Below the pieces are notes generated by a model, which was not told the DNA's origin, made no database searches, and saw only the letters and a program-made list of their open reading frames with translations. Below, one piece after another: positions 14,831 to 55,361 of a stretch of 64,000 nucleotides of DNA. Source of the stretch: Mobula hypostoma (Eukaryota); contig NC_086097.1 of assembly GCF_963921235.1 (NCBI RefSeq), forward strand, positions 140,246,001-140,310,000, read 5' to 3'. Numbering within the stretch: position 1 is the first letter of the stretch; each line of letters opens with the position of its first letter. The translations under genes were made by a program, and so were the position numbers.

Positions 14831-14834
14831 GGCC

Positions 14835-19357: not shown

Positions 19358-22300
19358 AGGGTCAGACAGGCGATTCTGTGGATGCAGGAAAGAAACACAG
19401 ATGGCAGTTTGCCTCCCAGATGCCCGGGTCTGGGATGTTTCTGATCGCGTCCACGATATCCTGAAGTGGGAAGGAGAACAGAGGTTGTGGTACATATCGG
19501 TATCAATGACACAGGTAGAAAAAGGGAGGAGGTCCTGAAAACAGACTATAGGGAGTTGGGGAGGAAGTTAAGAAGCAGGACCACAAAGGTAGTCATCTCG
19601 GGATTACTGCCTGTGCCACGTGACAGTGAGTATAGGAATAGAATGAGATGGAGGATAAATGCGTGGATGAGGGATTGGAACAGAGGGCAGGGATTAAAAT
19701 TTTTGGATCATTGGGACCTCTTTTGGGGCAGGTGTGACCTATACAAAAAGGACGGGTTGCCCTTGAATCCCTAGAGGACCAATATCCTGGCAGGGGGGTT
19801 TGCAAAGGCTGTTAGGGAGAGTTTAAACTGGAATTGCTGGGGGATGGGAACTGAATTGAAGTGACAAAGAAAGAGGTGGTTGGCTCACAAATAGAGAAAG
19901 CTTGCAGACAGTGCGAGAGGGAGGATAGGCAGGTGATAGAAGAGACGCGCTCAGACCGATGGTTTGAGATGTGTCTATTTTATTGCAAGGAGTATTATGA
20001 ACAAAGCAGATGAGCTTAGTGCGTCGTTTAGAACTTAGAGCTATGATGTTATGGCCATTACAGAGACTTGGATGGCTCAGGGGCAGGGATGGTTACTTCG
20101 AATGCCAGGCTTTAGGTGTTTCAGAAAGGACAGGAGGGAGGCAAAAGACATGGGGGCATGGCACTGTTGATTGGAGCTAATGTCACGGCTGCAGAAAAGG
20201 AGGAAGTTATGGAGGGATTGTCTACGGAGTCTCTGTGTGTGGAAGTTAGGAACAGGAAGGGGTCAATATCTCTACTGTTTTTTATATAGACCACCCAATA
20301 ATAACAGGGACATCGAGGAGCAGATAGGGAGACAGATTCTGATAAGGTGTAATAATAACAGGGCTGTTGTGGTGGGAGACTTTAATTATCCAAATATCGA
20401 TTGGCGTCTCCTTGGAGTGAGGGGTTTAGGTACGGTGAAGTTTGTTAGGTGTGTTCAAGAAGGTTTCTTGACACAATATGTAGATGAGCTTACAAGAGGA
20501 GAGGCTGTACTTGATTTGATATTGGGAAATGAACCTGATCAGACGTCAGATCTCTCAGTGAGAGAGCATTTTGGAGATTGTGATCACATTTCTATCTCCT
20601 TTATCACAGCATTGGAGAGGGATAGGAACAGACAAGTTAGGAAAGCGTTTAATTGGAGTAAGGGGAAATATGAGGCTATCAGGCAGGAACTTGGAAGCAT
20701 AAATTGGAAACAGATGTTCTCTGGGAAATGTATGGAAGAAATGTGGCAAATGTTCCGGGGATATTTGTGTGGGGTTCTGCATAGGTATGTTCCAATGAGA
20801 CAGGGAAAGGATGGTAGGATACAGGAACCGTGGTGTACAAAGGCTATTGTAAATCTAGTCAAGAAGAAAAGAAGAGCTCATGAAAGGTTCAAAAAACTAG
20901 GTAACGATAGAGATTTAGAAGATTATAAGGCTCACAGGAAGGAGTTTAAGAATGAAATTAGAAGAGCCAGAAGGTGCCATGAGAAGGTCTTGGTGAACAG
21001 GATTAAGGAAAACCCCAAGGCATTCTACAAGTATGTGAAGAGCAAGAGGATAAGACATGAGAGAATAGGACCAATCAAGTGTGACAGTGGAGAAGTGTGT
21101 GTGGAACTGGAGGAGATAGCAGAGGTACTTAATGAGTACTTTCTTTCAGTATTCACTACAGAAAAGGATCTTGGCGATTGCAGGGATGACTTACAGCAAA
21201 CTGAAAAGCCTGAGCATGTAGATATTCAGGAAGAGGATGTGCTGGAGCTTTTGGAAAACATCAAGTTGGATAAATCACCGGGACCGGACGAGATGCACCC
21301 CAGGCTACTCTGGGAGGTGAAGGAAGAGATTGCTGAGCCTCTGGAGATGAACTTTGCATCATCAGTGGGGATGGGACAGGTTCCGGAGGACTGCAGGGTT
21401 GTGAGTGTTGTTCCATCATTCAAGAAAGGGTGTAGAGATAGCCCAGGAAATTATAGACCAGTGAGTCTTACCTCCGTGGTTGGTAAGTTGATGGAGAAGA
21501 TCCTGAGAAGCAGGATTTATGAATATTTAGAGAGGCATAATATGATTAGGAATAGTCAGCATGGCTTTGTCAAAGGCAGGTTGTGCCTTACGAGCCTGAT
21601 TGCATTTTTTGAGCATGTGAATGAACACATTGATGAAGGTAGAGCAGCAGATGTAGTATATATGGATTTCAACAAGGCATTTGATAAGGTGCCCCATGCA
21701 AGGCTTATTGAGAAAGTAAGGAGGCAGGGGATCCAAGGAGTGTTGCTTTGTGGATCCAGAACTGGCCTGCCCACAGAAGCCAAAGAGTGATTGTAGATGG
21801 GTCATATTCTGCATGGAGGTCAGTGACCAGTGGTGTGCCTCAGGGATCTGTTCTGAGACCCCTACTCTTCATGATTTTTATAAATGAGCTAGATGAGGAA
21901 GTGGAGGAGGGGTGTGTAAATTTGCTGATGACACAAAGGTTGGGGGTGTTGTGGATAGCGTGGATGGCTGTCAGAGGTTACAGCAGGACATTTGATAGGA
22001 TGCAAAACTGGGCTGAGAAGTGGCAGATGGAGTTCAAACCAGATAAGTGTGAGGTGGTTCATTTTGGTAGGTCAAATATGATGGCAGAATATAGTATTGA
22101 TAGTAAGACTCTTGGCAGTGTGGAGGATCAGAGGGATATTGTATAAAAGTATAAAGTATTGGGGTCCGAGTCCATAGGACACTCAAAGCTGCTGCGCAGG
22201 TTGATTTTGTGGTTAAGAAGACACACGGTGCATTGGCCTTCATCAATCGTGGGATTGAGTTTAAGAGCCGAGAGGTAATGTTGCAGCTGTATAGGACCCT

Positions 22301-22846
22301 GGTCAGACCCCACTTGGAGTACTGTGCTCAGTTCTGGTTGCCTCACTACAGGAAGGATGTGGAAACCATAGAAAGAGTGCAGAGGAGATTTACAAGCATG
22401 TTGCCTGGATAGGGGAGCATACCTTATGAGAATAGGTTGAGTGAACTTGACCTTTTTCCCTTGGAGCGAAGGAGGATGAGAGGTGACCTGATAGAGGTGT
22501 GCAAGATGATGAGAGGCATTGATCATATGGATAGTCAGAGGCTTTTTCCAAGGGCTGAAATGGCTAGCACCAGAGGACACAGTTTTAAGGTGCTTGGAAG
22601 TAGGTACAGAGGAGGTGCCAGGGGTAAGTTTTTTTTTACGCAGACAGCGGTGAGAGCATGGAATTGGCTGCCGGCGATGGTGGTGGAGGCGGAAATGATA
22701 GGGTCTTTTAAGAGACTCCTGGATAGGTACATGGAGCTTAGAAAAATAGAGGGCTATTGGTAACCCTTTCTAAGGTAAGGACATGTTCAGGACAGTTTTG
22801 TGGGCCAAAGGGCTTTTATTGTGCTGTAAGTTTCCTATGTTTCTAT
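19358..22846 (+). mobile_element. Younger CR1 LINE nested in a CR1: esterase-type ORF1 remnant plus APE-RT ORF2
   Basis: ORF1 VVVHIGINDTGRK...WDLFWGRCDLYKKDGL (SGNH esterase-like). The 539-aa ORF 20171-21790 has YRPP, GDFNYP, NYRPVSLTS and DFNKAFDKVPH; GVPQGSVL lies downstream in another frame. Confidence 0.93.
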
Positions 22847-26719: not shown

Positions 26720-29700
26720 TAGGATTTGAAACGAGAGGTGTTTAAAAGTGGTAGGTCTCAGGACTGCTGGTGAGCTTCACATATTACAGGAAGGAACAAT
26801 GGGTGTGAGTGCTTAAAAGAAGTAGGTCTCAGGACTTGCTGGTAAATTTCACATACCAAGAGACGGGACTTCGATTAAGAGGCACAAGCATTTAAAATAG
26901 GCCTCAAGGTTTGCTGGTGAGTTTCACTTAACAAGACTGTTTACTAGCTAACTGACAGCAACAATCAAAATAAATTGGGGTCAACCAGAGTGGCCATTTT
27001 TGTGTAGCCATTATTGCAGTGGAGAGCTGAGGCTTTGGTGTGAAGTGGTTAAGTTAATAGCCAGATGTGGGGAGTGAGAGAACCCTTTTAAAAACAAAGG
27101 AACTTCAGTGAGAGGCAAAGGTAAGGCCAAGTAACGTTTTTTTTTGTTGTTGATCCTTAGTCCTTGATTTAGGCAGGATGGTAGACGAGTGGAATGCTCA
27201 TCCTGCAAGATGTAGAAAATCAGGGTACCTCATCCATAGGAAGAAGCACAGTCGACATTTTGGGCCGAGACCCTTCGTCAGGACTAACTTAAAGAAGAGA
27301 TAGTAAGACATTTGAAAGTGGGAGGGGGAGGGGGAGATCCAGAATGATAGGAGAAGACAGGAGGGGGAAGGATAGAGCTAAGAGCCGGAAAGTTGATTGG
27401 CGAAAGGGATACAGAGTTGGAGAAGGGAGGATCATGGGACGGGAGGCCCAGAGAGAAAGAAAGGGGGAGGGGAGTGCCAGAGGAAGGTGGAGAGCAGGCA
27501 AGGAGTTATTGTGAGAGGGACAGAGAGAGAAAAAAGAGAGAAAAGAGAGAGAGAGAGAAAAACAAGGGAAAAATAATACGTAAATAAATAAATAAGGGAT
27601 GGGATAAGAACGGGAGGAGGGGCATTAACGGAAGTTGGAGAAGTCAATGTTCATGCCATCAGGTTGGAGCCTACCCAGACGGAATATAAGGTGTTGTTCT
27701 TCCAACCTGAGTGTGGCTTCATCTTGACAGTAGAGGAGGCCATGGATAGACATATCAGAATGGGATTCCACGTCCCACGTCCCTATGGATGCTGTCTGGC
27801 CTGCTGCGTTCCACCAGCATTTTGGGTGTGTTGCTTGAATTTCCAGCATCTACAGATTTCCTCGTGTCAGGGTACCTCATGGTCTCCCTGCTACTACATC
27901 TATTGGAAGTGCACACAGATGCAGTTCCTGACAGACCAGTTCAAGGAACGTGAGCTGGAGTTAGATATAGGTAGAATCATCCAGGAAGCTGAGAGCTTCA
28001 CTGATGATACTTTTACTGAGGACGTCACACCCAAGGTACAGGTTTCAGATAAATGGGTAAAGCAAGTAGGCAGTCTGTGCGGGGTTCTCCTGTGACTTTG
28101 TGCGGCTCTGAGGCTCAGCAGGGAACGGTAACGTCAGGAACACCAATTATGATATGAGACTTGATAGTTAGGAGGACAAACAGTAGGACTGTGTGTTGCT
28201 TCCCAATGTTCAAGCCAAGGATATCTCTGAGCAGCTGCAAAAATTTTCTCAAGGGGGAGGGTGAACAGCCAGAGGTCATTGCACATGTTGATACAAACAA
28301 CATAGGCATAACAAGGGATGAGGTCCTGTGGAATGAATAGGGGAAGATAGGTAAGAAATTAAAATGCAGGATGTCAAGGGTGATGATCTCTAGGTTACTC
28401 CTGATACCACATGTTATCAGGAGTATGTGAGCCCAGGACTAGAAAGATAGGCCAGATGATTCAATGACTGAAGAGTTGGTGCAAATTTTCAGGCTCTTGA
28501 ATCACTGGGGTCTCTTCTGGGGTAGAGGCGATCTGTACAAAAGGTACAGGTTGTAATGGAACCAAAGGAAACCAATACCCTAGCGGGGGCATTTGCTTTT
28601 GCCACCAGGAGAATGGGACTCGAGGGAACAAACTCATTGAGAATACAGGGGTACGTGCAGAAATCAACGTGTGCACGCCTAGCAATCAGGATAGCCATGC
28701 TTACAGTAAAACAGCAGATAACGCCAATGGTTTAAATTGCATCTATTTCAATGCACATAGCACTACAAGTAAGGCAGTTAACTGAGGGCCTGGATTGCCT
28801 CCAGGGAATAGGATATTGTAGCCATAACAGAAACATGGCTGAGAGAAGGACAGGACTGGCAGTTCAATGTTCCAGGATCCTGATGCTTTAGGCATGTCAG
28901 AGGTATGGGTAGGACTGGAGGGAGTGTTGCCTTTTTAATAAAGGAGGATGTAACAGCAGTGTTTAGTGAAGATTCTCTTGAGGGATCACCTAACAAGGCC
29001 AGTTGGGCAGAAGTTAAAAATGAGAAGGGATAGTCACCTTGCTAGGGATATATTAGACTCTGCAATGGTCAGTGGGAATTTGAGTAGCAGAGGTGTTGAG
29101 AAATTGCACATAGTTGTGAGAATAATAGTGTAGTGCTAGTGAGAGATTTCAATTAACCCAGTATAGATTGGGCTACCCAGAGTACCAACTGCCTGGAGGA
29201 GGTGGTATTTGTGTGGTGTGTCCAAGACAGTTTCCCCATGCAATATATAAAGGAACCTACATGAGAAGGAGCAATACTGGACCTCCTCTTAGGGAATGAG
29301 GTGGGGCAAGTAACTTAAAATGGCAGTTGGAGAGCACTTTGGATCCACAATTCTATTAGTTTTAAAATAGCTATGAAAAAGGTAGAACAAGTCCACAGAC
29401 CAACTTTGAGGTCATTAGACAGGATCTAGTTGGCGTCGACTACGTGACTCTAATTATAAAGGCAAAGGGACAATTGGTAAGTTGGAAGCTTTGAAAAGGG
29501 ACTTTTCAGAGTCCAGGGTATCTTCTTGAGGTGAAGGGTGGAGATACCAAGTTCAGCCAACCCTTGCTATAAGAGATATAGAGGCTCTGGTCAAGGAAAA
29601 CAAGGAAATCTACATTACTTTTAGACAGCTGGGTACAAATGAATCTGTCGATGAAAATAAAGTTTAAGAGCACATTTAGGACAGAAATCAGGAGGGCAAA

Positions 29701-33580: not shown

Positions 33581-34466
33581 GACATGATATTTGCGATTTT
33601 TATCAGTCCGCTTTATCACTTTACTTGAACTACAACTGAATGTCACTCAAATATCACTTGCACACAAAACTCATGCAAGTCAAATAAGTGTCAAAGCCAT
33701 TAAGCTGATAGATAATATAATCACATTTGGTGCAAGGTGTTTGCTAGAATATTACTGGTACTACGTGGGACTTATTAAGTGATAACCGAGAAATGACTGC
33801 AATCTATCTCTGTTTAAAGATGATATGGCAAATTCCTGAGCTAGGAAGGAGCAGATATTTGCAAATGATGCCAGAGAAAGATATGATTGAAAATTCTTTG
33901 GAATCTGTCACGTTACCACTTAAAGATAAAGCAAGATAAATAAAGCTGAATGACCTTCCCTGGTTTCTATATTTTCATTTAGTTCATAAATTTATAATAA
34001 CAATGAAAATACTGGAAATACTCAGCATGACAGGCAGCATCCAGAGAGAGAAAAACAGCTAACATTTTCAATGTCAATGACCTTTCATCAGTGACCTAAA
34101 ATGTTACCTCTTTCTCCAGAAATTTTGTCTATTTCCATCATTCTTCTACATTTCAGATCTCGAACATCTGTCATGCTGTGCTTTTGAATTACAGGTTTCC
34201 CCTGCCATTCAAAGGTACAGTGTTCCTATGAAATGGTTCGTAAGCCAAAATGTCGTAAAGCGAAGAAGCAATTACCGTTTATTTATATGGGAAAATTTTG
34301 TGAGCATTTGTAGATCCAAAAATAACCTACCAAATCATGCCCAATAACACATAGAACCTAAAATAACAGTAACATATAGTAATCGCAGGAATGATATGAT
34401 AAATACACAGCCTATATAAAGTAGAAATACTTTTCCACAATCATTGCCGGCACAGATCTCCGTAGC

Positions 34467-34570
34467 GAAAATCTCACACAAGCACCGTCGGCAGAAAATC
34501 TCACGCAAGCGCCGTCGGCAGAAAGTCTCACGCAAGCGCTGTTGGCAAAAACACGGCGCAAGCGCTCTCC
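34467..34570 (+). repeat. 27-bp tandem repeat (gaaaatctcacgcaagcgccgtcggca), 3-4 units
   Basis: Read directly. Duplicated at 39377-39480; only about one unit in copy 2. Confidence 0.85.
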
Positions 34571-34660
34571 AGTAATCTTTAAACTATGAAGCTGCCAAAT
34601 CATACCAAATAACACATAAAAATACACAGCTGATATAAAGTACAAATAATGTATGTACAG

Positions 34661-35492
34661 TGTTACGAGAATACACATAAAATTAAGATGTTTGCTGGCC
34701 TGGGCTAGCATCAGTGGCATCAGCAGTTGGTCTGCCACCTGCCCTCAGGGGAAGGAGAGATAAGGAACAATGGAGCAGCGTCTGGAGATGTGTAATGAAG
34801 GGATGTGGGAGGAAGAGCTGTCTGGAGCGGCTCCCCCCCTTTGAACCCTGAACTGTTTGAAGTGATGGACAGGCGATACCCCAGCAGGGGGATAAAAAGG
34901 GACAGGTTCGCTAAGACAGACACACACGCCACCCGAGGTAACGAGACCCTGGAAGCGGGACGCTTCTCACGAGTGGGTGGAAAGGTACGATCAGCGGGAA
35001 CCCGGTGTGTGTCCGCCCTTGCCTGGGTGCCGGGTTCACTGCAGAGGATCGACCGCATCTGGAGGAGGGGTCACAGTCGGTGACCTCAGGTGACATCACC
35101 AAGGACCTGCCCAAAAGCTGTTTGTGAGCCATCCCGCTGGTCTGTGAGTGAAGCCGTTCTGAATGATCAGTTGTTCCTATTCTGTCTCTCTCCCCCCACC
35201 TTGTCCATCGCCATGGCAACGATTACTGCGAACTGAACTACAAACTGGACTGAACTTTGAGTCATTTTGAAATTGGTCATTTACCCCTAGACAACGATAG
35301 AGCTTGATTGATGCTGTTATCTTAATTCTGTGCACATGTGTGGTTATCATTGTTGAATTGTTGCATTTATTATCCTTTCGATTACTGTGTTGCTTGTTTC
35401 TTTAATAAAACTTTCTTAGTTCTAGTACTCCAGACTCCAACTGAGTGATCCATTTCTGCTGGTTTGGCAACCCAGTTACGGGGTACGTAACA
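34661..35492 (+). repeat. 5' LTR (832 bp)
   Basis: TGTTACG...CGTAACA termini; aataaa at ~35404. Confidence 0.95.
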
Positions 35493-35496
35493 TAAG

Positions 35497-35515
35497 TGGG
35501 GTTCTCGTCCGCGAT
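35497..35515 (+). promoter_or_regulatory. Primer-binding site, tRNA-Pro type
   Basis: tggggttctcgtccgcgat(tttgaac) resembles TGGGGGCTCGTCCGGGAT(TTGAAC), the complement of the tRNA-Pro 3' end; starts 5 nt after the LTR. Confidence 0.85.
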
Positions 35516-35591
35516 TTTGAACGCTAAATTTGGGACGGAGTAAATTGATTGGGTTAAAATTCCCGAAAGAAAGAAAAGACAAACAGCAGAA

Positions 35592-38045
35592 ATGGAGGTT
35601 GAGGAATTTATAAAGGCGCCGACCTTGGAGGCATTAGAGGATGCCAGGAAATCGGAATTGATAGCTGTGGCAAAACGGGTGAATCTTGCTAAGGTGAAGT
35701 CGACAATGAGGAGAGAGGAGATACACAGAGCTATTGTAGAGCACTATGTATCTAAAGGTGTGTTTCCCCAAGGTGAGCTGGGGGAGGTGTCTATTGGAAA
35801 ACCTGCTGGAGACGCGGTACAGGTACAGTTTGAAAAACTGAGACTCGAGCACGAGTTCTGGGTACGGCAGTTAGAACACGAAGAGAAGCAGTTAGAAAGG
35901 CAGGAGAGAGAGGTAGAAAGGCAAGAGAGAGAGAGGGACAGACAGTTGGAGAGAGAGGAGAAACAGAGGGAAAGGGAATTTGAGCTGGAGAAGTTAAAGA
36001 TAAGGGCCGAGCAGGGGCTCGTGCCGAACCAAGGTGGAGGGTTCCGGGCGACCCAGGAGGTTAGGCTGGTTCCCCCATTTGACGATACCGATGTGGATCG
36101 GTACTTTCTCCACTTCGAAAAGGTGGCTATAAGTCAGGAATGGCCGAGGGATAAGTGGGTTGTTTTACTTCAGAGTGTACTGAAAGGGAAAGCCCAACAA
36201 GCTTACTCCGCTTTATCCCCGGAAGATGCCCAGAAGTATGAGGTGGTGAAGGAGGCCATCCTCAGGACTTATGAGTTGGTCCCGGAGGCATACCGGCAGA
36301 GGTTCCGGAATGCGAGGAAGCGGTGGGACCGCACGTATTTGGAGTTTGCTAGTGAGATGCAAACATATTGTGAGCGTTGGTGCGCCTCGAAAGGGGTAGA
36401 GGGGGATTATGACAGACTGCTGCAGCTGATTCTGATTGAGCAGTTTAAAGGTTGTGTCCCTGAGGGTATGAGACCCTACCTCGATGAGAAAGAGGCAGCC
36501 ACGTTAGCCGCAACTGCTAAGTTAGCGGATGAGTATGCGTTGACGCATAAAATGAAGGTTGCCCCGAGTAAAGGCTACCAGAAGGGTAGTCAGGACGGCG
36601 GGGAGAGTCCGCCGGAAAAGTCAGAAAGTAAGCCGGGGACTAGTGAAAAGGATAAGGTAGACCGGGAGCAGCCTGGTAGGAAGTCTCCTGGGGTCGTCTG
36701 TTATAATTGTGGGAAAGTCGGACACTTTGCGTCCAGGTGCTTTGCCCCAAGAAAGGAGACGGGGAAAGGAAAAGCGGAAATTTGGAATGGCTGTATTGAG
36801 CTGTTAAGCGAACCGCTAGGGAAGGACAGGTCTGAAAAAGTCCAGGAAGGGCGCGAGAGGTTTATCTCGGCCGGACTGGTGTCAGTGAAAAAGAGGTTAA
36901 AACCAGTTCCAGTGCGGATCTGGAGAGACACGGGAGCGTGTCAGTCACTAATACTGAAGAGTGTATTAGAGTTTAGCTCAGAGACCCAGACTGGGGAGGT
37001 AGAGGTCAAAGGTATTGGGGGAGGGACAGAGTCAGTCCCTTTGCACCAGATACACTTACAGAGCAACCTGGTCTCTGGACTAGTCACGATTGGGGTGAGG
37101 TCCGAATTACCGATGAAAGACGTGGAAGTCTTGCTCGGTAATGACATCGCCGGAGGGATCGTGTTCCCAGTCGTGAGATTGACGGGTCAGCCTGCCAGCA
37201 TGGAGGCCCCGCCCGCGATGGTGAATTTGGCTGAAACATTTCTGCCAACCTTGTATGAGACAGGGTGTAGTGAGATAAGAGGTAGTGAGGGAGCTGGGAC
37301 GGACGTAGCAGTAGCCAGGAAAGAATTTGTGCAGACGCAGGAGCGAGACGAGGGGCTGATGGTTTTTGCCGAGACCGCTCTCTCTGACACAGCCTTGACA
37401 AGCTATTGTGCGGATGAGGAAGTGCTAAGGAAGAAAGGGAAATCAAGTACAGCATCCGCAGATGAGGAGTGGGGGGTGGTGCAAAAGAGTTACGGGGATG
37501 AGGTTTTTAACATGGCCCACGAGGTACCCCCCGTTGGACATTTTGCGGTGCTGGAGGAAACAGTTGGTGGAATCATGAAAGAGATTTACCGGCTGCCCAG
37601 GGGGAAGAATGTTATTGATCATGACCGACGCGAACTGAGACGGTCACCGGCTTTTGATATGCTAACAAACCTAGTCGGTGTTAGCGTGGAAATCAATGAA
37701 GCTAGGGGCCCCTTGATAAGAGGAAAAAACCATTTTGAAAAGATTAGGATGGGATCGGTCAGATGGGAGAAGGCTATTGTTTTGGCCAGGTCTACTGATA
37801 AGGTCTCTCCCTTAATCCCCGAAGGAGTAATTAAACGACTCGCACCCATGTGTTTGATTGTCCCGAGGAAATGCAAAGAACTGGGACGTTGGGTTATGTC
37901 TGTTACAATAGGGCGGCCAAGTAAACAACACCCATATTTTTTGAGTAATTCAGTGACTAAAGGGCTGATGAACACAGAGGTGTGTATTGGCAATTTAACA
38001 CGGCTGTCTGAAGCCAGCTTGATAGTGAACCTTGGAAAAAAATGA
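35592..38045 (+). CDS. Gag-protease polyprotein (817 aa) with SCAN-like capsid, CCHC knuckle, aspartic protease and fused pol remnants
   Basis: VPPF..YFLHFEK..W..YELVPEAYRQRFR..LILIEQF (Gmr1/SCAN gag); CYNCGKVGHFASRC; RDTGACQSL; AHEVPPVGHF (IN zinc-finger remnant); NTEVCIGNL where RT YIDD is expected. Confidence 0.88.
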   Translation: MEVEEFIKAPTLEALEDARKSELIAVAKRVNLAKVKSTMRREEIHRAIVEHYVSKGVFPQGELGEVSIGKPAGDAVQVQFEKLRLEHEFWVRQLEHEEKQLERQEREVERQERERDRQLEREEKQREREFELEKLKIRAEQGLVPNQGGGFRATQEVRLVPPFDDTDVDRYFLHFEKVAISQEWPRDKWVVLLQSVLKGKAQQAYSALSPEDAQKYEVVKEAILRTYELVPEAYRQRFRNARKRWDRTYLEFASEMQTYCERWCASKGVEGDYDRLLQLILIEQFKGCVPEGMRPYLDEKEAATLAATAKLADEYALTHKMKVAPSKGYQKGSQDGGESPPEKSESKPGTSEKDKVDREQPGRKSPGVVCYNCGKVGHFASRCFAPRKETGKGKAEIWNGCIELLSEPLGKDRSEKVQEGRERFISAGLVSVKKRLKPVPVRIWRDTGACQSLILKSVLEFSSETQTGEVEVKGIGGGTESVPLHQIHLQSNLVSGLVTIGVRSELPMKDVEVLLGNDIAGGIVFPVVRLTGQPASMEAPPAMVNLAETFLPTLYETGCSEIRGSEGAGTDVAVARKEFVQTQERDEGLMVFAETALSDTALTSYCADEEVLRKKGKSSTASADEEWGVVQKSYGDEVFNMAHEVPPVGHFAVLEETVGGIMKEIYRLPRGKNVIDHDRRELRRSPAFDMLTNLVGVSVEINEARGPLIRGKNHFEKIRMGSVRWEKAIVLARSTDKVSPLIPEGVIKRLAPMCLIVPRKCKELGRWVMSVTIGRPSKQHPYFLSNSVTKGLMNTEVCIGNLTRLSEASLIVNLGKK

Positions 38046-38400
38046 ATTCGGCCACACGAATGTCACTTACCTGGGAATTGTGGTGACACAGGGGCAGCTG
38101 GCAGTGATGCAAGCTACAGTGCAGGCTATCGCTGACCTCCCAACCCCGACAGACAAGAGGGCCCTCAGAAGGCTTTTGGAGATGGTGGGGTACTGCAGGA
38201 AGTTTTGCAATAACTCTGCGGTCAATACCCATCCCCCTCCTACTAAGCCCCTGCGAGGGAAAATTGAGTCGGAATGGGACGACCCTTGTTGTTGTGGTCC
38301 GGGACAAAACCAAATGAGAGGTTACATTGGTCGCAATTCATCAGTGTTTTTGGCCACTATGAAGTTTGCTGAGTTGGAGCCTGGTCTAAGGGATTATTAA
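38032..38400 (+). pseudogene. RT palm/thumb remnant, +1 frame after an A7 run
   Basis: EFGHTNVTYLGIVV...PTPTDKRALRRLLEMVGYCRKF is Gypsy RT thumb-like. Confidence 0.75.
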
Positions 38401-38560
38401 TAACACGTGTAAAAGGAACAGAAAATGTGATGACTGTCTGTCAAGGTGTTGACAGCTTCAAATTCTCTATATTAGCTAAATAACTGTTAAAGATGTATAT
38501 TGTGTATGTATCAGATAATGTAGTCATGTTTGTAATTTTTACCTCCCGGTAAAAATCCTT

Positions 38561-38572
38561 AAAGGGGGGAAG
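38561..38572 (+). promoter_or_regulatory. Polypurine tract
   Basis: aaagggggga ag lies immediately before the 3' LTR TG. Confidence 0.88.
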
Positions 38573-39365
38573 TGTTACGAGAATACACATAAAATTAAGA
38601 TGTTTGCTGGCCTGGGCTAGCATCAGTGGCATCAGCAGTTGGTCTGCCACCTGCCCTCAGGGGAAGGAGAGATAAGGAACAATGGAGCAGCGTCTGGAGA
38701 TGTGTAATGAAGGGATGTGGGAGGAAGAGCTGTCTGGAGCGGCTCCCCCCCTTTGAACCCTGAACTGTTTGAAGTGATGGACAGGCGATACCCCAGCAGG
38801 GGGATAAAAAGGGACAGGTTCGCTAAGACAGACACACACGCCACCCGAGGTAACGAGACCCTGGAAGCGGGACGCTTCTCACGAGTGGGTGGAAAGGTAC
38901 GATCAGCGGGAACCCGGTGTGTGTCCGCCCTTGCCTGGGTGCCGGGTTCACTGCAGAGGATCGACCGCATCTGGAGGAGGGGTCACAGTCGGTGACCTCA
39001 GGTGACATCACCAAGGACCTGCCCAAAAGCTGTTTGTGAGCCATCCCGCTGGTCTGTGAGTGAAGCCGTTCTGAATGATCAGTTGTTCCTATTCTGTCTC
39101 TCTCCCCCCACCTTGTCCATCGCCATGGCAACGATTACTGCGAACTGAACTACAAACTGGACTGAACTTTGAGTCATTTTGAAATTGGTCATTTACCCCT
39201 AGACAACGATAGAGCTTGATTGATGCTGTTATCTTAATTCTGTGCACATGTGTGGTTATCATTGTTGAATTGTTGCATTTATTATCCTTTCGATTACTGT
39301 GTTGCTTGTTTCTTTAATAAAACTTTCTTAGTTCTAGTACTCCAGACTCCAACTGAGTGATCCAT
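38573..39365 (+). repeat. 3' LTR, lacking the last 39 bp
   Basis: Identical by eye to 34661-35453; ends at gagtgatccat. Confidence 0.93.
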
Positions 39366-39699
39366 ATCTTCGTAGCGAAAATCTCACACAAGCACCGTCG
39401 GCAGAAAATCTCACGCAAGCGCCGTCGGCAGAAAGTCTCACGCAAGCGCTGTTGGCAAAAACACGGCGCAAGCGCTCTCCAGTAATCTTTAAACTATGAA
39501 GCTGCCAAATCATACCAAATAACACATAAAAATACACAGCTGATATAAAGTACAAATAATGTATGTACAGTTACCGGAATCGGGACAGCGCAGAGCACAA
39601 TGATGATGGTGTGTTAGGCTGAGTCGGAGTTTGGGTGGTGCAGAGGCCCCTACCCTCCGGACCACCAACTGATACATTGCCGCGAAGCACGCAGGGGTC

Positions 39700-39923
39700 C
39701 AGCGGTAGCCAGGACGCACCCAGCACATCTTTAAGAAAAAAGCCGAAATAAACATGCTAATTAATTATGTGCCGCCCGACACGTAATTGTTGGCCCAGAT
39801 CAGTACAGTTGCATCACCTCTGATCTGGGCCGACAATTACGTGCTAGGCGGCACCTAATTAATTAGTATGTTTATTTCGGCTTTTTTCTTAAAGATGTGC
39901 TGTGTGCCTCCTGGCTACCGCTG
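39700..39923. repeat. Long inverted repeat (hairpin) inside Tigger copy 1
   Basis: cagcggtagccagga...agatcag / ctgatct...tcctggctaccgctg; arms ~100 bp. Confidence 0.9.
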
Positions 39924-41324
39924 CATTCTCTGCGAATCGTTACAGTATCTGTCCACGGCCCAGGTGTTCGGGCGGTAGGACATGGGGGTGTCATCTCATC
40001 GTCGACCAGGGCAGGCAGCTCATCTTCGCCTATGACTGCCTGCCTCGATGTCGAAGGTCGAGGTTCGTCGTCTGCTGTGGCTGATGTGGAAGGCTTGCTT
40101 GACTGCTGAGCCTCGCGCATTTGTCTATCATACAGTTCTTTGTAAGGACTCAAAGAATCTTGCAAATATCCCTTAAACCTACGTACCCTTCAAAATTAAA
40201 GTCGTACTTTATCATTACTCATTTGGTTTCGATTGTTATTCTTTCCTCTTCCAATTGCATCAGCTCTTCATCTATCAGTTCTTGGTCATGGGATGCCAAA
40301 ACCTCTTCAACATCATCTTCACCAGCTTCCACGAGCCAAACTCATTTTGTCCTTGCTTCATTCACCACGATCGCAACGCTTAATTATGTCTAGTTTTATG
40401 CTAAGTGTAACACCCTTACGAGCTCTTTCAGGCTTTTCCGACGCCATAGAACTCACCTTGCAAACGATTACTCACAGGCTCGTGTTAAAGCAATGCTGGC
40501 GAGAATGCCGTTCCGAATCCGGGGAGAGCGGCTGCTCGGGGCACACGCTGATTTTTTTGTGTGCTGAATTTTTTATCGCGCACAGAATTTTTTTCGTAAC
40601 AGTGAAAACACCTTCTGAAAGTGAAAACAGGGTACTAATGTAGGTCTTTTGTAACAGTGAGGTTTCATAAAGCGAATGTTCAAAAAGCGGGGAACACCTG
40701 TATTTAAGATAAATTTGGTTTTAGGAGAATGAAATCTCCAAAATGAGTAGCTTGATTAAAATTGACCTAAACCACTACACAAACACAGAAATCCATTTAG
40801 CTTCAAAGGACATACAATTTTCTGATTGAAACTCAACAGAAGTAGCATAACCAAAACTTCACTTTATATTTTTTATGGTGTGAAATTGATCTTTGATTAC
40901 TATTTGAAGACAAATGAACACAAGAGGCCCCTGTGATTGATTCATATCAAGTTTTCATACCAAAAACAAGCATCAAAAGATTCAATTAAAAAGACAACTA
41001 AAGCAGAGAACAATTAAGTTCCAGAATGCCCAATACAGTTGGTGCCTCCTAGTTAAAAAAATGCAAACTTTTACTTGCAGTTACATGAAGAACACAAAGT
41101 TGTTAACAAAGCAATAAAGTCATCAAAGCCACAGTGGATGAAACAGTTGCCAAGGGAATCAATCAGTTGGGATAAGACCAGGAACTTCGGTAAATCGTGG
41201 AAGCTTGCAATGATAAACAAGAATGTGTAATAAGGCTGAGCCTGATCGGTGTTATAAAAAGGCTCTGTGATAACATGCCATGAACAGTACTTCAGTTCAC
41301 TTAGGCAGTGAGACAAACCCCATC

Positions 41325-44705: not shown

Positions 44706-46795
44706 TGGTAGAACATCTTTTTAAAGTAGCTCATGATTGAGCCCACTAGGGATCAGCTATTCTAAATTGGAAAGAACTGGAATTGATTACAGAGCTTAAA
44801 GTAAAGGAACCCTAAGGGGTCAGTGATCATAATATGATAGAATTCACCCTGCAATTTGAGAAGGAGAAGCTAAAATCAGATGTATCAGTATTATAGTGGA
44901 GTAAAGGGAATTACACAGGCATGAGAGAGGAGCTGGCCAAAATTCATTGGAAGAGGATACTATCAGGGATGATGACAGAATAGCTGGAGTTTCTCGGAGG
45001 AATTCAAAAGGCGCAGGATAGATACATCCCAAAGCAGAAGCAGAAGTAGTATTCTAAAGGCAGGATGATGCAACCGTGGCTAACAAGGGAAGTCAAAGCC
45101 AACATAAAAAAATAAAGAGATGACGTATAATAGACCAAAATTTGTGGGAATTTAGAGAATTGGGAAACTTCTAAAAACCAACAGAAGGGAATTGGGGAGA
45201 AGATGGAACATGAAGGTAAGCTAGCCAAAAATATTAAACCAGAAGTTTCTTCAGATATATAAAGAGTAAATGAAAGGAGAGAATGGATATCAGACTGCTG
45301 GAAAATGATGCTGGAGAAGTGAGTGAAGTTGCCATTACTAGGGAGAAGGTACTTGAGAAACTGAAAGGTCTGAAGGTAGATAAATCACCTGGACCAGATG
45401 GGTCTACACCCCAGGGTTCCAAAAAAGGTGGCTGAAAGATTGTGGAAGCAAAAAATAATGATCTTTCAAGAATCAATAGATTCTGACATAGTTCCGGAGG
45501 ACTGGAAAATTACAAATGTCACTCCACTCTTTAAGAAGGGAGAGAGGCAGAAGGAAGGAAATTATAGGCCGGTTAGTCTGACCTCCATGGCTCAGAAGGT
45601 GTTGGAGTTGACTGCTAAGGATGTGGTTTTGGTGTACTTGGAGGCACATGATAAAATAAGTTGAAGTCAGCATGGTTTCCTTAAGGTAAAATCTTGTCTG
45701 AAAAATCTGTTGGAATTTTTTGAAGAAATAACAAGCACGGTAGACTAAGGAGAATCGGCGGATGATGTGTACTTGGAATTTAAGAAGGCCTTCAAATTAC
45801 CACATGAGGCTGCTTAATAAGTTAAGAGCCCATGGTATTACAGGAAGGATAATAGCATGATAGAGCATTGGCTGATTGGCAGGAGGCAAAGAGTGAGAAT
45901 AAAGGAAGCCTTTTCTGATTCTAAAGGGCTGCCAGTAATCAGTGGTGCTCTACAGGGTCTGTGTTGGGTCAGCTCCTTTTTATATCATATATCAATGATT
46001 TGGATGACTGAATTGATGGCTTTGTGGGCCAAGTTTACCGATGATAAGAAGATAGGCAGAGGGGCAGGTAGTGTTGACGAAGCAGAGAGGCTGCAGAAGG
46101 ACTTAGACAGATTAGGAGAAGGCACAAAGAAATGGCAGATGGAATAGTGTTGGGAAGTGTATGGTCATGCGCTTTGGTAGAATAAATAAAAGTGTAGACT
46201 ATTTGCTAAATGGAGAGAAAATTCCAAAATCAGAGGTGCAAAGGATTTGGAGTCCTCGTTCAGTATTCCCTAAAGGTTAATTTGCAGGTTGAGTCGGTGA
46301 CGAGGAATGCAAATGCAATGTTACCATTCATTTCGAGAGGACGAGAATATGAAAACAAGGAAGTAATGTTGAGGCTTGAAAAGGTACTGGCGAGGCCTCA
46401 CTTGGAATATTGTGAGCAGTTTTGGGCCCTTTATCTAAGAAAAGATGTGCAGACATTGGAGAGGGCTTAAAGGAGGTTCACAAAAATGATTCTGGGATTG
46501 AAAGGCTTATCATATGAGGACTGTTTGACAGCTCTGAGCCTGTACTCACCAGAGCTTATAAGAATGAGAGGCGTGGGGGACATCTCATTGAAACTTCTGA
46601 ATATTGAAAGGCCTAATAAAGTGTACATGCTGAGGATATTGCCCATAATGGGAGAGTCTAGGATCAGAGATTACAGCCTCAGAATAGAAGGGCTTCCCTT
46701 TAGAACAGAGATGAGAAGGAATTTCTTTAGTCAGAGGATGGTGAATGTGTGAAATTTATTGCCACAGACAACTGTGGAGGCGAAGTCACTGAGTA

Positions 46796-48360
46796 CAGGT
46801 TTCCCCCACCCTCCAAAGGTAGAGCGTTCCTATGAAACGGTTCGTAAGCCAAAATGTCGTAAAGCGAAGAAGCAGTTACCATTTATGTATATGGGAAAAT
46901 TTTGTGAGCGTTCGCAGACCCAAAAATAACCTACCAAATCATGCCAAATAACACATAAAACTTAAAATAACAGTAACATATAGCAAAAGCAGGAATGATA
47001 TAATAAATACACAGCCTATATAAAGTAGAAATACTTCTCTACAACGATTGCCTGCACAGATCTCTGTAGCGAAAATCTCACGCAAGCGCTGTTGGCATAA
47101 ACGCGCACTCCAGTAACCTTTAAACTATGAAGCTGCCAAATCTACCAAATAACACGTAAAAATACACAGCCTATAAAAAGTAGAAATAATGTATGTACAG
47201 TGTAGTATCACTTACGGGAATTGGGAAGACATCGAGCACACTGATGATGGTGTGTTAGACTGAGTCGTCGCAGGTCGGGGTGGTGCAGTGGCCCCCACCC
47301 TCCAGGCTGCCGACTGATACATTGCCGCGAAGCACGCAGGGGTAGCTGGGAGGCACGCAGCACATCTTTAAGAAAAAAGCCGAAATAAACATGCTAATTA
47401 ATTAGGTGCTGCCTGGCACGTAAATGTTGGCGCAGATCAGAGGCGATTGCCGATTGCATTGGCACTGATCTGGGCCGACAATTACGTGCTAGGCGGCACC
47501 TAATTAATTAGCATGTTTATTTCGGCTTTTTTCTTAAAGATGTGCTGTGTGCCTCCCGGCTACCGCTGCGTTCTCCGCGAATCCGTACAGTATCTGTCTG
47601 GGGCCCAGGGGTTGGGGTGGTGGGTCACGGGGGTGTCATCTCATCGTCGATCAGGGTAGGCAGCTCATCTTCTCCTATGATTGCCTGCGTCGATGTCGAA
47701 GGTTGAGGTTCGTCGTCCTCTGTGGCTGATGTGGAAGGCTTGCTTGACTGCTGAGCTTCGAGCATTTTCCTATCACACAGTTCTTTGTAAGGACTCAAAA
47801 CATCCTGCAAATATCCCCTAAACCTACGTACCCTTTCAAAATTAAAGTCGTACTTTATCATTGCAGCGAAAATCTCACGCAGTTGCTTCACGTTCAGTTC
47901 CTGGATGACTTCACTTTCGCTACTGCATTCGGTTTTGATTGTTGTTCTTTCCTCTTCCAATTGCATCAGCTCTTCATCTATCAGTTCTTGGTCATGGGAT
48001 GCCAAAACCTCTTCAACATCATCTTCGTCAGCTTCCACAAGCCAAACTCCCTTTGTCCTTGCTTCGTTCACCACAATCGAAACACTTAATTATGTCTAGT
48101 TTTACGCTAAGTGTAACACCCTTACGAGCTCTTTCAGGCTTTTCCGATACCTTAGAACTCATCTTTTAAACGACTGCTCAATGCAACGTGTTTAAGCAAT
48201 GCTGGCGAGAATCCGGGGGACAGCGGCTGCTCAGGGTGTGCACTGCCTTTCTTCGTAACAGTGAAAACACCTTCTGAAAGCGAAAACAGGGTACTAATGT
48301 AGGTCTTTCGTAACAGTGAGGTTTCGTAAAGCGAACGTTCGAAAAGCAGGGGGACACCTG
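46796..48360 (-). mobile_element. Non-autonomous Tigger/pogo-type transposon (copy 2, 1565 bp)
   Basis: TA TSDs at 46794-46795 and 48361-48362; CAGGT TIRs. ORF 47625-48074 (DVEEVLASHDQELIDEELMQLEE...NFERV...YKEL) resembles the Tigger/TIGD C-terminus; no DDE domain. Confidence 0.9.
47341..47564. repeat. Long inverted repeat (hairpin) inside Tigger copy 2
   Basis: ggtagctgggaggcac...agatcag / ctgatct...gtgcctcccggctacc. Confidence 0.9.
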
Positions 48361-51479: not shown

Positions 51480-54400
51480 TAGAATTTCTTCTCTATTGCA
51501 AAAGGGGTGGGAGGGAGGAGAATGACATATCGGGGCACAGCAGAAGCTGCAGCCAGGATTGTGGCACTGTGGCTGGTAGGGATGGGTAAAGCCAGGCAGA
51601 TTGATAGTGATAATGATAGAAGACTTGATAGAGGGATGGACAGCAGACTCTGTGTCCGCGAAAGAGTAGGCAGGATAGTGTGTTGCTTCGCATGTTCTAG
51701 GGTCCAGGATGTCTCAGACTAGCTGCAGAAGAATCTCAAAAGGGAGTTTAAACAGCCAGAAGTGGTGGTGCACATTAGCACCAATGACATAGGTAAAAAG
51801 GGGAAGAGGTTCTGTGCAGTGAGTATAGGGAGTTAGGCAAGAGGGCTGAAGAGCAACAGCAGCACCTCCAAGGTAGTAATCTCTGGATTACTGAGTACCA
51901 CATGTCAGTGAGGGCAGAAATAGGATGATAATACAGAGGAATGAGTGGCTGAGGAACTGTTGTACCAACAGGGTTTCTGATTTCTGGATCATTGGGATCT
52001 CTTGTGGGGAAGGCATGATCTGCATAACAAGGATGGGTTAGACCTGAACCCCAGGAAAACCAATACCCTTGTGGGAGAGTTTGCTAGAGCTGTTGGAGAG
52101 GGTTTAAACTAATTTGGACAGAGGCTAGGAACCAGAGTGATAGGGCTGAGAATGGGGCAGTTGGAATACAAGTCAATGCAGTGTGTAGTGAGACTGTGAG
52201 AAAAGACAGGCAGATGGTAGGGAAAATTTGATGTCAGTGTGATGTGTTGAAGTGTAACATGAGGGCAAAATCGAAAAAGCTTATGAGTACAGGACTAAAA
52301 GTATTACATTTGAATGCATGCAATACACAGAATAAAGGAGATTAATTTGCATCGCAGATGGAGATTGGCAAGTATGATGTTGTGGGCATCACTGAGTCAC
52401 GGCTGAAAGAAGATCATTGTGAGAAGCTTAACATCCAAGGATATATCTTGTAGCAAAAAGACATGCAAGTAGATAGAGGGGGTGGGGTAGTTCTGTTGAT
52501 AAAATTGAAATCAAATCCTTAGAAAGAGGTGATATAGTATTGGAGGATATAGAACCTTGTGGGTTGAGTTAAGAAACTGCAAGGATAAAAAGACCCTGGT
52601 GGAAGTTATACACAGGCCTCCAAGCAGTAACCAGGATTTGGGATATAAATTTCAACAGGAAATAGAAAAGGCATGTTATAAGGGTAATGTTACAAAAGTT
52701 ATGGGGGAATTTCAATATGCAGGTAGATCGTGAAAATCAGGTTGGTGCTGGTTCCCAAGAGAGGGAATTTGTAGAATGCCTAAGAGATGGGTTTTTGCAG
52801 CAGCTTATAATTAAGCCCACTAGGGGAAAGGCAATTCTGGATTGAGAGCTGTGTAGTGAACAAGATTTGATTTGGGAGCTTAAGGTAAAGGAACCCTGAG
52901 GAGCCAATGATAATAATATAATAGATTTCATCCTGTAGTTTGAGAAGGAGATGAAAGTCAGATATAGCTGTATTATAGTGGAGTAAAGGGGATTACAGAG
53001 GCATGAGAGAAGAACTGCCAAAGTTGATTGAAAGGGGACACTATCAGGGATGATGTCAAAACAGCAGTAGCTGGAGTTTCTGGAGGCAACTTGGAAAGTG
53101 AAGGATAGATACATCCCAAAGAAGAAGGGTCCTAAAGGGAGGATGAGACAACCGTGGCTGATGAGGGAAGTCAGATATAGCTTTAAAGCAAAAGAGAGTG
53201 CATATAAATAGCAAAAGTTAGTAGGAAGTTGAAGGATTGGGAAGCTTTTAAAAACCAACAGAGAGCACCTAATAAAACCATAAGGACAGAAAAGATAAAA
53301 TATGAAGGCAAGCGAGCTAATATTGTCAAAGAAGATAGCAAAAGTTTTTTTTCAGATAAATAAAGAGTAAAAGAGAGGCAAGAGTAGATATTGGACTAAT
53401 GGAAAATGACGCTGAAGAGATGGGGGGCAAAGAAATAGAGGACGAACTTAATAAGTACTTTATGTCAATCTTCACTGGGGAAGACACGAGCAATATGCCA
53501 GAAATTCAAGAGTGTCAAGGGGCAGAAGTGAGGTGCCATTGCTATTACTAAGGAAAAGGTTCTTGGGAAGCTGAAAAGTCTGAAGGTAACTAACTCTCCT
53601 AGACTAGATGGACTGCACCCCAGGGTTCTGAAAGAGGTAGCTGAAGAGATTGTAGGGTCATTAGCAATGATTTTTCAAGAATCACTAGATTCTGGAATGG
53701 TTCTGGAGGACTGGAAAATTGCAAATGTCATTTCATTCTTTAAGAAGGGAGAGAGGCAGAAAAAAAGAAAATTATAGGCCAGTTAGCCTAACTTCAGTGG
53801 GTGGGAAGATGTTAGAGTCCATTATTAAGGATGAGGTCTCATGGTACTTGGAGGTGCATGATTAAGTCCTGAAGGCCAAAGTCAGCATGGTTTCTTTAAG
53901 GGGAAATTTTGCCTGGCAAATCTATTGGAATTCTATGAGGAAGTAACAAGCAGGATAGGCAAGGAGAGTTAGTGGATGTTGTTTACTTGGATTTTCAGAA
54001 AGCCTTTAACAAGGTGTTGCACATGAGAGTGCTTAACAAAATAAGAGCCTATGGTATTACAGGAAAGATACTAGCATGGATAGAGGTTTGGCTGACTAGT
54101 AGGAGGTAAAGAATCAGAATAAACAAGACCAAGTCTGGTTGGCTGCCAGTGACTAGTAGTATTCCGCAGGGTTGGTATTGGGGCCACTTCTTTTTACATT
54201 ATATGCCTACAATTTGGATGATAGAATTGATGGTTTTATGGCCAGGTTTTCAGACGATACAAAGATAAATGGATGGACAAATACTGTTGGGGAAGCAGGG
54301 AGTCCACAGAAGGACTTGAACAGATTGCAAGAATCAGCAAAGAAGTGGCAGATGGAAAATAGTGTAGGCAGTGTACGGTCATGCACTTTGGTAGAAGGAA

Positions 54401-54900
54401 TAAAGGTGTAGACCATTTTCTAAATGGGGAGAAAATTCAAAAATCAGAGTGCTTGTGAGTCCTTGTGCAGGATTCCCTAAAGGTTAACTTATAGGTTGAG
54501 CTGATGGTAAGGAAGGCAAACGCAGTGTTAGTATTCATTTTGAGAGGACTATTATACAAGATCAAGAGCGTGATGTTGAGGCTTTATAAGTATTTGGTCA
54601 GACCACAATTGGAGTATTGTGAGCAATTTTGGGCCTCTTATCGAAGAAAAGATGTGCGAGTGTTGGAGAGAGCCCGTAGGAAGTTCAAGAGAATGAGTCT
54701 GGGAATGAAAGAGTTAACGCATGAGGAGCATTTGATGACTCTGGACCTATACTTGCTGGAGTTTAGAAGGAATAGGTTGGATCTCATTGAAAGCTATCAA
54801 ATATCGAATTTCCAACGTAGAGTGGAGGTGAAAAGGATGTTTCCTATAGAGGTTGAGTTCTAGGACTACAGGGCACACCCTTGAAATAGAAGGACATCTT
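51480..54900 (+). mobile_element. CR1 LINE (esterase ORF1 + ORF2 remnants), 3' end missing
   Basis: EVVVHISTNDIG, RFSDDTK and LVRPQLEYCEQFW; stops abruptly before the usual 3' tail. Confidence 0.88.
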
Positions 54901-54904
54901 TTTT

Positions 54905-55361
54905 GACAACGGGGTTTGGAATGCTGTTGTTCTTTCTTGTGAGCTGGAAGAGAGATTTTCACGGTCTTTTTGCTGGGGAGAGATGAGGAGAGAAGACGCG
55001 AATGGAGAGAGCTGGTAGACCGCCAGATGGGGTGGATTTGGAGCGAGTGTCTGAAGGGCAGCGACGATCGGAGGAGCTCGATGGTGGACGATTGACTTAT
55101 CAGTGAGCTCCAACATTGCGCAACAGACCGTTTAATAAGATTGGGCCCTTTTTTTCATTTCTTTACTAACCATATAGTCAAAGTAAGAATTATAAAGCTT
55201 AATCATTTAATCGCAAATTGTGTACTGTTTGTTATTTTGGGGTACTGATTTGTAACAGGGGACACATTGCGCAGCATCCACCCAAACGAGATTTCTTAAG
55301 TTTGGCCGGGTCAGGGGCTATCACCCCCTATATTAAGCCGCTAGCCGAAGCGAGAGTTACA
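54905..55361 (+). mobile_element. Probable LTR 3' fragment (different family from 34661)
   Basis: CpG-rich non-CR1 block with attataaa, an AT-rich U5-like region, and a terminal ...GTTACA abutting a CR1. Confidence 0.55.

Follow-up and report, generated by a model that had tools for sequence, protein, structure and literature searches.

How does an LTR retrotransposon come to be flanked by a host duplication of 205 bp? In a normal two-ended integration both LTR termini are intact and the target site duplication (TSD) measures 4–6 bp, whereas the element described here, from Mobula hypostoma, combines a 205-bp duplication with a 39-bp clip of one LTR. The reading that fits best, to which we give slightly better than even odds (about 0.55), is a single event in which the integrase of a relative would have joined the left end only, while host repair inserted the right end.

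The insertion and its junctions

The Gmr1-like Gypsy element is 4,705 bp long (34661-39365) and is nested in an older Tigger-like transposon. Positions refer to the window, the whole stretch of 64,000 nucleotides that was analysed. The duplication, the clip and the junctions were established on this assembled 64-kb sequence; among the contig pieces listed from four sequencing runs, no piece spans either junction. X1 and X2 denote the two copies of the duplicated host segment.

34192..34660, minus strand: older non-autonomous, TA-flanked Tigger-like DNA transposon, left part; TA at 34190-34191
34456..34660, plus strand: X1, host sequence bordering the element on the left; template for X2
34661..35492, plus strand: 5' LTR, complete, 832 bp, TGTTACG...CGTAACA; AATAAA at 35404
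35497..35514, plus strand: primer-binding site (PBS), behind a 4-nt spacer, TAAG
35592..38045, plus strand: 817-aa open reading frame (ORF); Gag with SCAN and a CCHC knuckle, protease-like motif, decayed integrase zinc-finger region, then unrecognisable
38001..38400, plus strand: remnant of the reverse transcriptase (RT) C-terminus, catalytic motif absent; frame change near 38030-38045
38561..38572, plus strand: polypurine tract (PPT), the AG at its end abutting the 3' LTR
38573..39365, plus strand: 3' LTR, 793 bp; U5 stops 39 bp short, without the terminal CA
39366..39570, plus strand: X2, 205-bp duplicate of X1, fused to the clipped LTR
39570..39571, no strand: boundary between X2 and the remaining host transposon; 11 bases of copy 2 absent
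39571..40700, minus strand: Tigger-like transposon, right part; TA at 40701-40702
46796..48360, minus strand: Tigger-like copy 2, an uninterrupted paralogue that serves as proxy for the empty site

The host transposon has terminal inverted repeats (CAGG(T)TTCCCC / GGGGAACACCTG) with TA on either side. It is 91% identical to copy 2 over the aligned bases, with 22 indels in the 1604-bp alignment. Copy 2 retains a remnant reading frame, on the minus strand, and its transposase remnant gives a weak DDE_1 lead in the atlas (0.87; DDE_1 is found in 26% of the cluster members). The name Tigger/pogo follows the initial annotation. Self-comparison bears out the earlier observation that copy 2 carries the duplicated segment once.

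The assembly agrees with the initial annotation that 34461-34660 recurs exactly at 39371-39570 and that the match extends to 205 bp with one mismatch. A duplicate by chance is excluded (BLAST E 3e-102), and self-comparison of the window gives no duplication at 99-100% other than the X and LTR pairs. The mismatch (C at 34460, T at 39370) lies 5 nt from the clipped junction, and the T in X2 is likely the derived base because copy 2 has C there. It is the sole difference among 998 duplicated bases; a position this close to the junction has a chance of 0.024 within X. At all other sites X2 keeps the differences that separate X1 from copy 2 (9 substitutions, 64 gap columns). X2 was therefore copied from this locus, and copying from the paralogous copy 2 is rejected. 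X1 holds a tandem array of 3.2 units of 27 bp at 34467-34551.

The left junction is precise, as had been noted: the 5' LTR opens at the same TG as the 3' LTR. AG precedes both LTR starts (34659-60 and 38571-72), and the host AG|T matches the PPT-LTR boundary AG|TGT over 3 bp, or over 5 bp (AGTGT) if the empty site was like copy 2. The frequency of AG in the host transposon is 0.056.

At the other end, comparison of the two LTRs confirms the loss of 39 bp together with the terminal CA. Both ends of the lost stretch are found once in the window. The position of the intact LTR end, 35492, agrees with three contig joints from both organisms compared below, which exit the LTR at 35492/35493 (with short sides and low-complexity partners). 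A near-identical PBS motif has 22 matches in 80 distantly related loci, and in many of these the layout "..GTAACA + short spacer + TGGGGGCTCGTCC" supports the same end. The PBS is presumably of the tRNA-Pro type. The clipped junction shows no exact microhomology; an imperfect 4/7 match is equalled or beaten by 38 of 494 nearby positions. Eleven bases of copy 2 are missing exactly at the insertion point, 39570/39571, which has a chance of ~0.04 given the 22 indels, and two further small indels lie within 20 bp beyond this gap.

Two explanations of the clip were set aside. A hairpin that stalls synthesis in the lost 39 nt is too weak (z -2.1 for the 39-mer, -1.1 and -1.6 for 53-mers), and the stronger of the stems is formed by the terminal inverted sequence itself. 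Target-primed insertion of the LINE type does not agree with the retention of the whole U3, the lack of a poly(A) tail and a clip 49 nt beyond the start of the poly(A) signal.

Family, coding remnants and age

Gmr1-like Ty3/Gypsy elements are described as having a SCAN-bearing Gag and the order PR-IN-RT-RH (bioRxiv 10.1101/2025.03.03.638093). The present copy has SCAN and CCHC in its Gag, TG...CA LTRs, a PBS 3' of the 5' LTR and a PPT 5' of the 3' LTR, with the CA gone from the 3' LTR. In the 817-aa ORF, Pfam detects SCAN (PF02023, E 5.5e-13) and zf-CCHC (E 1.1e-5), and a protease-like WRDTG motif is located at 36918. Homology to full-length relatives continues through the integrase zinc-finger region and ends near 37589-37631. 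Mobula hypostoma proteins are 86-95% identical to this ORF, and other copies from rays carry the same shortened ORF (P0001, with 93% identity across the entire query). The RT C-terminus is detected by tblastn at 38001-38148 in two frames (residues 1316-1364 of P0052). In the relatives P0043, P0052 and P0088 the integrase is located ahead of RT or RNase H. In the present copy only remnants are left, an integrase zinc-finger region and, after it, the RT C-terminus; as far as these remnants go, their order agrees with that of the full-length relatives.

Unlike the Gmr1-like elements described, this copy has no recognisable integrase core or RT catalytic region. The two ORFs scanned with Pfam have no match to rve or RVT_1 at E 0.1, the corresponding regions of five rve-bearing relatives give no tblastn match in the element, and YxDD/FxDD is absent from the three forward frames of its interior. 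By these features the element is a non-autonomous member of the Gmr1-like Gypsy family. Because neither an integrase core nor an RT catalytic motif was found, both enzymes likely came in trans, which supports the earlier proposal that integrase was needed in trans.

The summed contig depth over the LTR, ~4-6 x 10^5 against 11-17 over the left flank, is not a copy number and indicates a very high-copy family. Metagenome contigs contain the 80 distant Gmr1-like loci mentioned above, in 20 of which the members of a repeat pair are separated by more than 1.5 kb, and no locus shows the element with host flanks on both sides; the Tigger site has no match in these contigs. In viral contigs the LTR start has no match and Gag no confirmed relative. 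Six viral-contig matches to an 18-nt AT-rich Tigger motif were judged to be chance.

Age was assessed with Logan contigs from 4 of 21 listed runs, two of organism A and two of organism B; these contigs are short and swamped by repeat copies. The flanks diverge from organism B by 2.3% (37/1595), and an insertion of that age would be expected to show ~18 differences in the LTR pair and ~5 in the X pair. The LTRs are identical at 793/793 positions, and X1 and X2 at all 200 positions past the junction-proximal base. The 95% upper bound from 0/793 corresponds to ~16% of the time since the A/B split, and judged by this count the copy is very young. Organism B flank contigs end 27 and 23 bases inside the Tigger-like element; because both overlaps are under the tool bar of 31 bases, they give only a hint that the Tigger copy is older than the split.

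Origin of the duplication

In the one-ended reading, RT and integrase would be supplied in trans, after the model in PMC5041404. The U5 end would have been a poor substrate or left unjoined, and an unfinished plus strand is offered purely as a suggestion of one possible cause. After trimming, the free 3' end may have primed synthesis on host DNA, 205 bp left of the joined end, and so copied X. An error-prone polymerase would have left the C-to-T change 5 nt into the copy. Finally, the copied strand would have been rejoined to the right-hand host DNA, possibly with 11 bp lost at the original nick.

The hallmarks of aberrant proviruses occur together at this locus: a normal-looking end, a truncated other end and, at the latter, host sequence duplicated over hundreds of bp. 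This duplicate stops precisely where the element inserted, as one event predicts. The LTR and X pairs appear equally young, which we count in favour of the one-ended reading, and the lone difference beside the clipped junction suits error-prone junction synthesis. The poor microhomology at this junction counts against it, although in the HIV aberrant junctions described in PMC5041404, short homology is usual, not invariable. The initial annotation had proposed a natural one-ended integration with the left end joined by integrase. The former stands as the best fit, but the sequence does not demonstrate the latter, because the host AG(T) is identical to the PPT/LTR boundary.

This identity also keeps alive an unlikely alternative without integrase, in which host repair would have joined both cDNA ends, the left through a PPT remnant and the first LTR bases, the right after it had been trimmed and had primed a copy of X. 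The element itself lacks an integrase core, and the gap at the insertion point would suit such a route. Tf1 without integrase is reported to use sites that match the final bases of the PPT and a few of the LTR, and truncation of the far end is speculated (PMC11042837). The present copy resembles it in its truncated far end and in a host flank that agrees, over few bases, with the PPT end. However, only 2-3 identical bases are certain here, which often arise by chance, and the 11-bp gap may predate the insertion, given the two small indels nearby. A large target duplication is not described for the Tf1 pathway in the parts of that study considered, which cites HIV integrase-free insertions as mostly lacking target duplications. 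The high summed depth over the element further suggests a prolific family, and therefore a working integrase in trans.

Ordinary repair could yield the same final structure in two steps, which we regard as no more probable than the integrase-free route. A normal short-TSD insertion would soon have been followed by a break near the 3' LTR end and by template switch or unequal exchange onto the empty homologue, at a point 205 bp upstream of where the element sits. Heterozygosity is likely in a young insertion, both runs of organism A hint at a second allele at 33428, and related rearrangement models have been put forward for HERV-K by Kahyo et al. (PMC5488345). Still, two events would have to fall within a span that left 0/793 LTR differences, the second break would have to hit within 39 bp of the element end, and no trace of a short TSD is left.

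Less likely still is an assembly artefact, in which the clip and the duplication would have been created by joining a filled haplotype to an empty one, or by a chimeric read. The junctions, as read from the assembly, have a high-copy repeat on each side, and the duplicate is essentially perfect. Yet the window contains no N, no other 99-100% duplication occurs in it, and both unique flanks agree with organism-A contigs without a difference over 940 and 677-680 bases. The interior is not a collapsed average, because its alleles differ from the family majority at several sites (e.g. 36672, 37021, 37534). A switch between haplotypes normally falls within sequence that both share; it would not duplicate X, nor would it give rise to a new junction base.

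A local tandem duplication, followed by normal insertion into its first copy and later deletion of the LTR tip, TSD and spacer, has been proposed as a "pseudo-TSD" for HERV-K 6p25.2 (PMC5488345) and would suit the slippage evident in the 27-bp array, but it is very improbable, needing three events with 0/200 divergence between the copies, and copy 2 holds the segment once.

Significance and comparison with known systems

If real, the locus extends the rescue of half-finished integrations by host repair, documented in experiments with HIV/ASLV and at a few loci of HERV-K, to a Gypsy-type element in the germline of a fish. The frequency of such copies is probably under-counted, because pipelines that require a short TSD and TG..CA ends discard them (e.g. 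the filters in PMC6317226). A single locus does not change the view of the biology; it points to a genome-wide count in a young, high-copy, integrase-less family. A bolder pair of ideas, which we consider quite unlikely, is that integrase had no part in the insertion, which would have used PPT/LTR microhomology at the left end and copying by a polymerase at the right, or that a very abundant integrase-borrowing family makes one-ended insertions far above the ~2% of HERV-K. If either were true, the family would steadily supply ray genomes with local duplications, and its copies would form a large natural data set on how host repair completes failed integrations. The class of event is already known, and the present case, as another example of it, is of modest interest.

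In the literature searched, with most subscription journals outside its coverage, nothing comparable came up for a Gypsy or Gmr1 element. Plant reports of "long TSDs" proved to concern ordinary TSDs of 4-7 bp. In Drosophila, median TSDs of 23-26 bp are given for three LTR families, together with a 13-bp LTR truncation (PMC8090852).

The closest natural parallels are HERV-K(HML-2) insertions, which are likewise germline LTR insertions flanked by long near-perfect duplications. They are treated in two papers, one of which, PMC4422153, we take to be by Macfarlane and Badge. Kahyo et al. 2017 list 8 of 451 putative TSDs as longer than 10 bp (PMC5488345). Long duplications of 111, 206, 250 and 450 bp are put down to inefficient integration (PMC5488345 Table 2; PMC4422153), and 3'-truncated proviruses are given at 6p25.2 (111 bp) and 21q21.1 (450 bp). 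Kahyo et al. caution that later rearrangement may have produced some of the long duplications, as "pseudo-TSDs". These published germline cases lower the surprise of the present locus. The HERV-K copies belong to the betaretrovirus-like ERVs and are for the most part solo LTRs or severely truncated; two of them have PCR-validated empty alleles (as reported in PMC5488345 and PMC4422153). The element here, by contrast, is a nearly complete two-LTR Gmr1-like copy with a 39-bp clip, seen in one assembly.

Varadarajan et al. 2016 describe one-ended proviruses of HIV-1 and of ASLV/RSV vectors in which one end is truncated and hundreds of bp of host DNA are duplicated (PMC5041404), which matches the earlier statement that defective retroviral ends yield aberrant proviruses with large duplications. 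The present case differs from these in being a germline Gypsy-type element of a cartilaginous fish, a single assembly case with no drug or engineered mutation, in which the mechanism is inferred and the junction microhomology does not exceed background. It resembles them in having one normal end and a truncated other end joined to a long host duplication, and its defect lies at U5, which is also the defective end in the RSV U5-mutant work that PMC4422153 cites.

Structure of the duplication and the LTR ends

Self-comparison of the window reveals only two near-perfect duplications (99-100%), the LTR pair of the Gypsy element and 34453-34661 versus 39363-39571.

LTRs of the element (window positions, forward strand)
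34661-35492: 5' LTR, 832 bp, TGTTACG...CGTAACA
38573-39365: 3' LTR, identical to the 5' LTR at 793/793 positions; stops 39 bp short, terminal CA gone

Host bases 34456-34660 (X1) are repeated at 39366-39570 (X2), immediately past the LTR break, the sole difference being C at 34460 versus T at 39370. Copy 2, an uninterrupted paralogue of the host transposon that stands in for the empty site, carries the segment once and has C at this position. The initial annotation had described a 200-bp duplication around the element, a 3' LTR lacking 39 bp including the terminal CA, a precise left junction at TG and a single segment in copy 2. Each is seen in the assembled window, the LTR loss relative to the complete 5' LTR; duplication and clipped LTR are confirmed in the assembly, at a single locus. 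Contigs of organisms A and B, the sources used for comparison, exit the LTR at 35492, and distant relatives have the same end-spacer-primer-site layout, which supports 35492 as the true LTR end of the family. The last 19 LTR bases (35473-35491) fold as a hairpin of 6 bp, with the terminal inverted sequence repeated in its arms; it falls inside the 39 bp missing from the 3' LTR.

The element interrupts a TA-flanked inverted-repeat transposon (34192-40700), named Tigger in the initial annotation; a transposase test gave only a weak DDE_1 lead. Where the two align, it shares 91% of its bases with copy 2, and 22 indels separate them. A near-perfect palindrome, its arms 104-122 bp long, lies inside each of the two copies (39700-39924 and 47326-47579). 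Decayed LINE-like copies, presumably CR1-type, occupy a large share of the window (14832-16822, 18278-22736, 44718-46704, 52792-54906 and 55362-56525). A further repeat family has three copies (8-1331, 27231-27842 and 57617-58881) that are 81-94% identical; in one of them, inverted ends are separated by about 1.3 kb.

Coding content of the element

The interior contains one 817-aa ORF with a SCAN domain (E 5.5e-13), a CCHC knuckle and a protease-like motif. Among named proteins, the nearest matches are Mobula hypostoma models (77-95% identity for the 11 best hits), which makes the host a devil ray or a close relation of one. In full-length relatives, integrase precedes RT or RNase H, which is the defining order of Gmr1-like elements according to bioRxiv 10.1101/2025.03.03.638093. 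Homology to these relatives ends in the integrase zinc-finger region and returns solely as a short RT C-terminal remnant, interrupted by a frame change; no YxDD/FxDD motif is present in the forward frames of the interior. P0001, a Mobula hypostoma gene model, shares this shortened layout and is 93% identical, so the element belongs to a non-autonomous family and did not simply decay as a single copy. Because of this, integrase would have been supplied in trans, an earlier proposal that both the homology endpoint and the shared layout support.

The shortened Gag-protease ORF (35592-38400), lacking integrase and RT, stays open for 817 codons; gene models of Mobula hypostoma (P0001-P0011) contain it as well. 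Two of them are fused into models that bear the names of host genes, MACC1 and phosphatidylserine decarboxylase; annotation chimerism or exonisation probably accounts for this.

Origin of the duplication

One-ended integration completed by host repair, as proposed in the initial annotation, is the best fit (probability about 0.55). The precise TG end, the 39-bp clip and the 205-bp duplication uphold it in part; the steps are ones we infer, following the explanation in PMC5041404. The left LTR end would be joined by borrowed integrase and the U5 end trimmed by 39 nt. The trimmed end would then prime 205 bp leftward on host DNA and copy the segment, and the copied strand would be rejoined to the right-hand host DNA.

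Relative to copy 2, X2 has the private indels of X1 and all of its substitutions but one, indicating that X2 was copied from the present locus. Across 998 duplicated bases there is a single difference, 5 nt away from the right junction (chance 0.024 within the segment); its position points to error-prone synthesis at this join. Exact microhomology is absent at the right junction, and 38/494 nearby positions do as well as its imperfect 4/7 match or better. At 39570-39571, where X2 meets the remaining transposon at the exact insertion point, 11 bases of copy 2 are absent, and two 3-bp indels follow within 20 bp. The chance of an indel edge falling there is about 0.04; the gap may have arisen in the event itself or through an earlier deletion.

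The insertion appears recent. Orthologous flanks in organism B differ at 37/1595 bases (2.3%). An insertion as old as this divergence would have about 18 LTR differences, and 0 are seen (P about 1e-8). Barring gene conversion or assembly smoothing, the 95% upper bound on its age is about 16% of the organism B divergence time. The duplication looks as young as the insertion, a pattern that fits a single event without proving it.

Integrase-independent capture via PPT microhomology, as for Tf1 in PMC11042837, is a doubtful alternative. The left junction is exact at TG. The host AG in front of it matches the last two bases of the PPT (the polypurine tract before the 3' LTR), and the host base that follows, T, is also the first base of the LTR. 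Just as doubtful is a normal insertion that afterwards recombined with an empty homologue. A TGTACA palindrome lies just upstream of the left junction (34654-34666), and the bases right of X2, GTTAC, equal LTR bases 2-6 (39564-39574); both may reflect a target preference of the family.

An assembly artefact is unlikely, somewhat more so than either of these. The comparison covered 4 of 21 listed runs as short Logan contigs, two from each organism; both unique flanks are identical to the organism A contigs (940 and 677-680 bases). The interior is no collapsed average of the family, since it departs from the majority allele at several sites. Among the contig pieces listed for these runs, which exclude most joints, none spans a junction. 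Of the 80 related metagenome loci, none yielded a measurable TSD. At 33428, both organism A runs have a second allele equal to the organism B base (from a single contig in each run, whose end lies 5 bases away), a hint of heterozygosity in this region. A pre-existing duplication followed by deletion is very improbable, the segment being single in copy 2.

Relation to known aberrant insertions

Literature listings, with few subscription journals among them, showed no Gypsy or Gmr1 duplication of comparable size. This is possibly the first case noted in a cartilaginous-fish Gypsy element, at a single locus known from the assembly. Natural long-duplication cases are already published for HERV-K. 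Of 451 putative TSDs in Kahyo et al. (PMC5488345), 8 sites have duplications >10 bp, with lengths of 206, 250 and 450 bp among them and some at truncated proviruses; empty alleles were validated for two, and rearrangement alternatives were also put forward. In PMC4422153, long-duplication sites are ascribed to inefficient integration, citing RSV U5-mutant work. PMC5041404 describes ASLV/HIV proviruses in which one end is normal and the other is truncated and abuts duplicated host DNA, hundreds to thousands of bp long, and explains them by a free 3' end that primes on neighbouring host DNA, followed by recombination. The anatomy of our element is alike, while integrase action at the good end and single-event timing are what we infer here.
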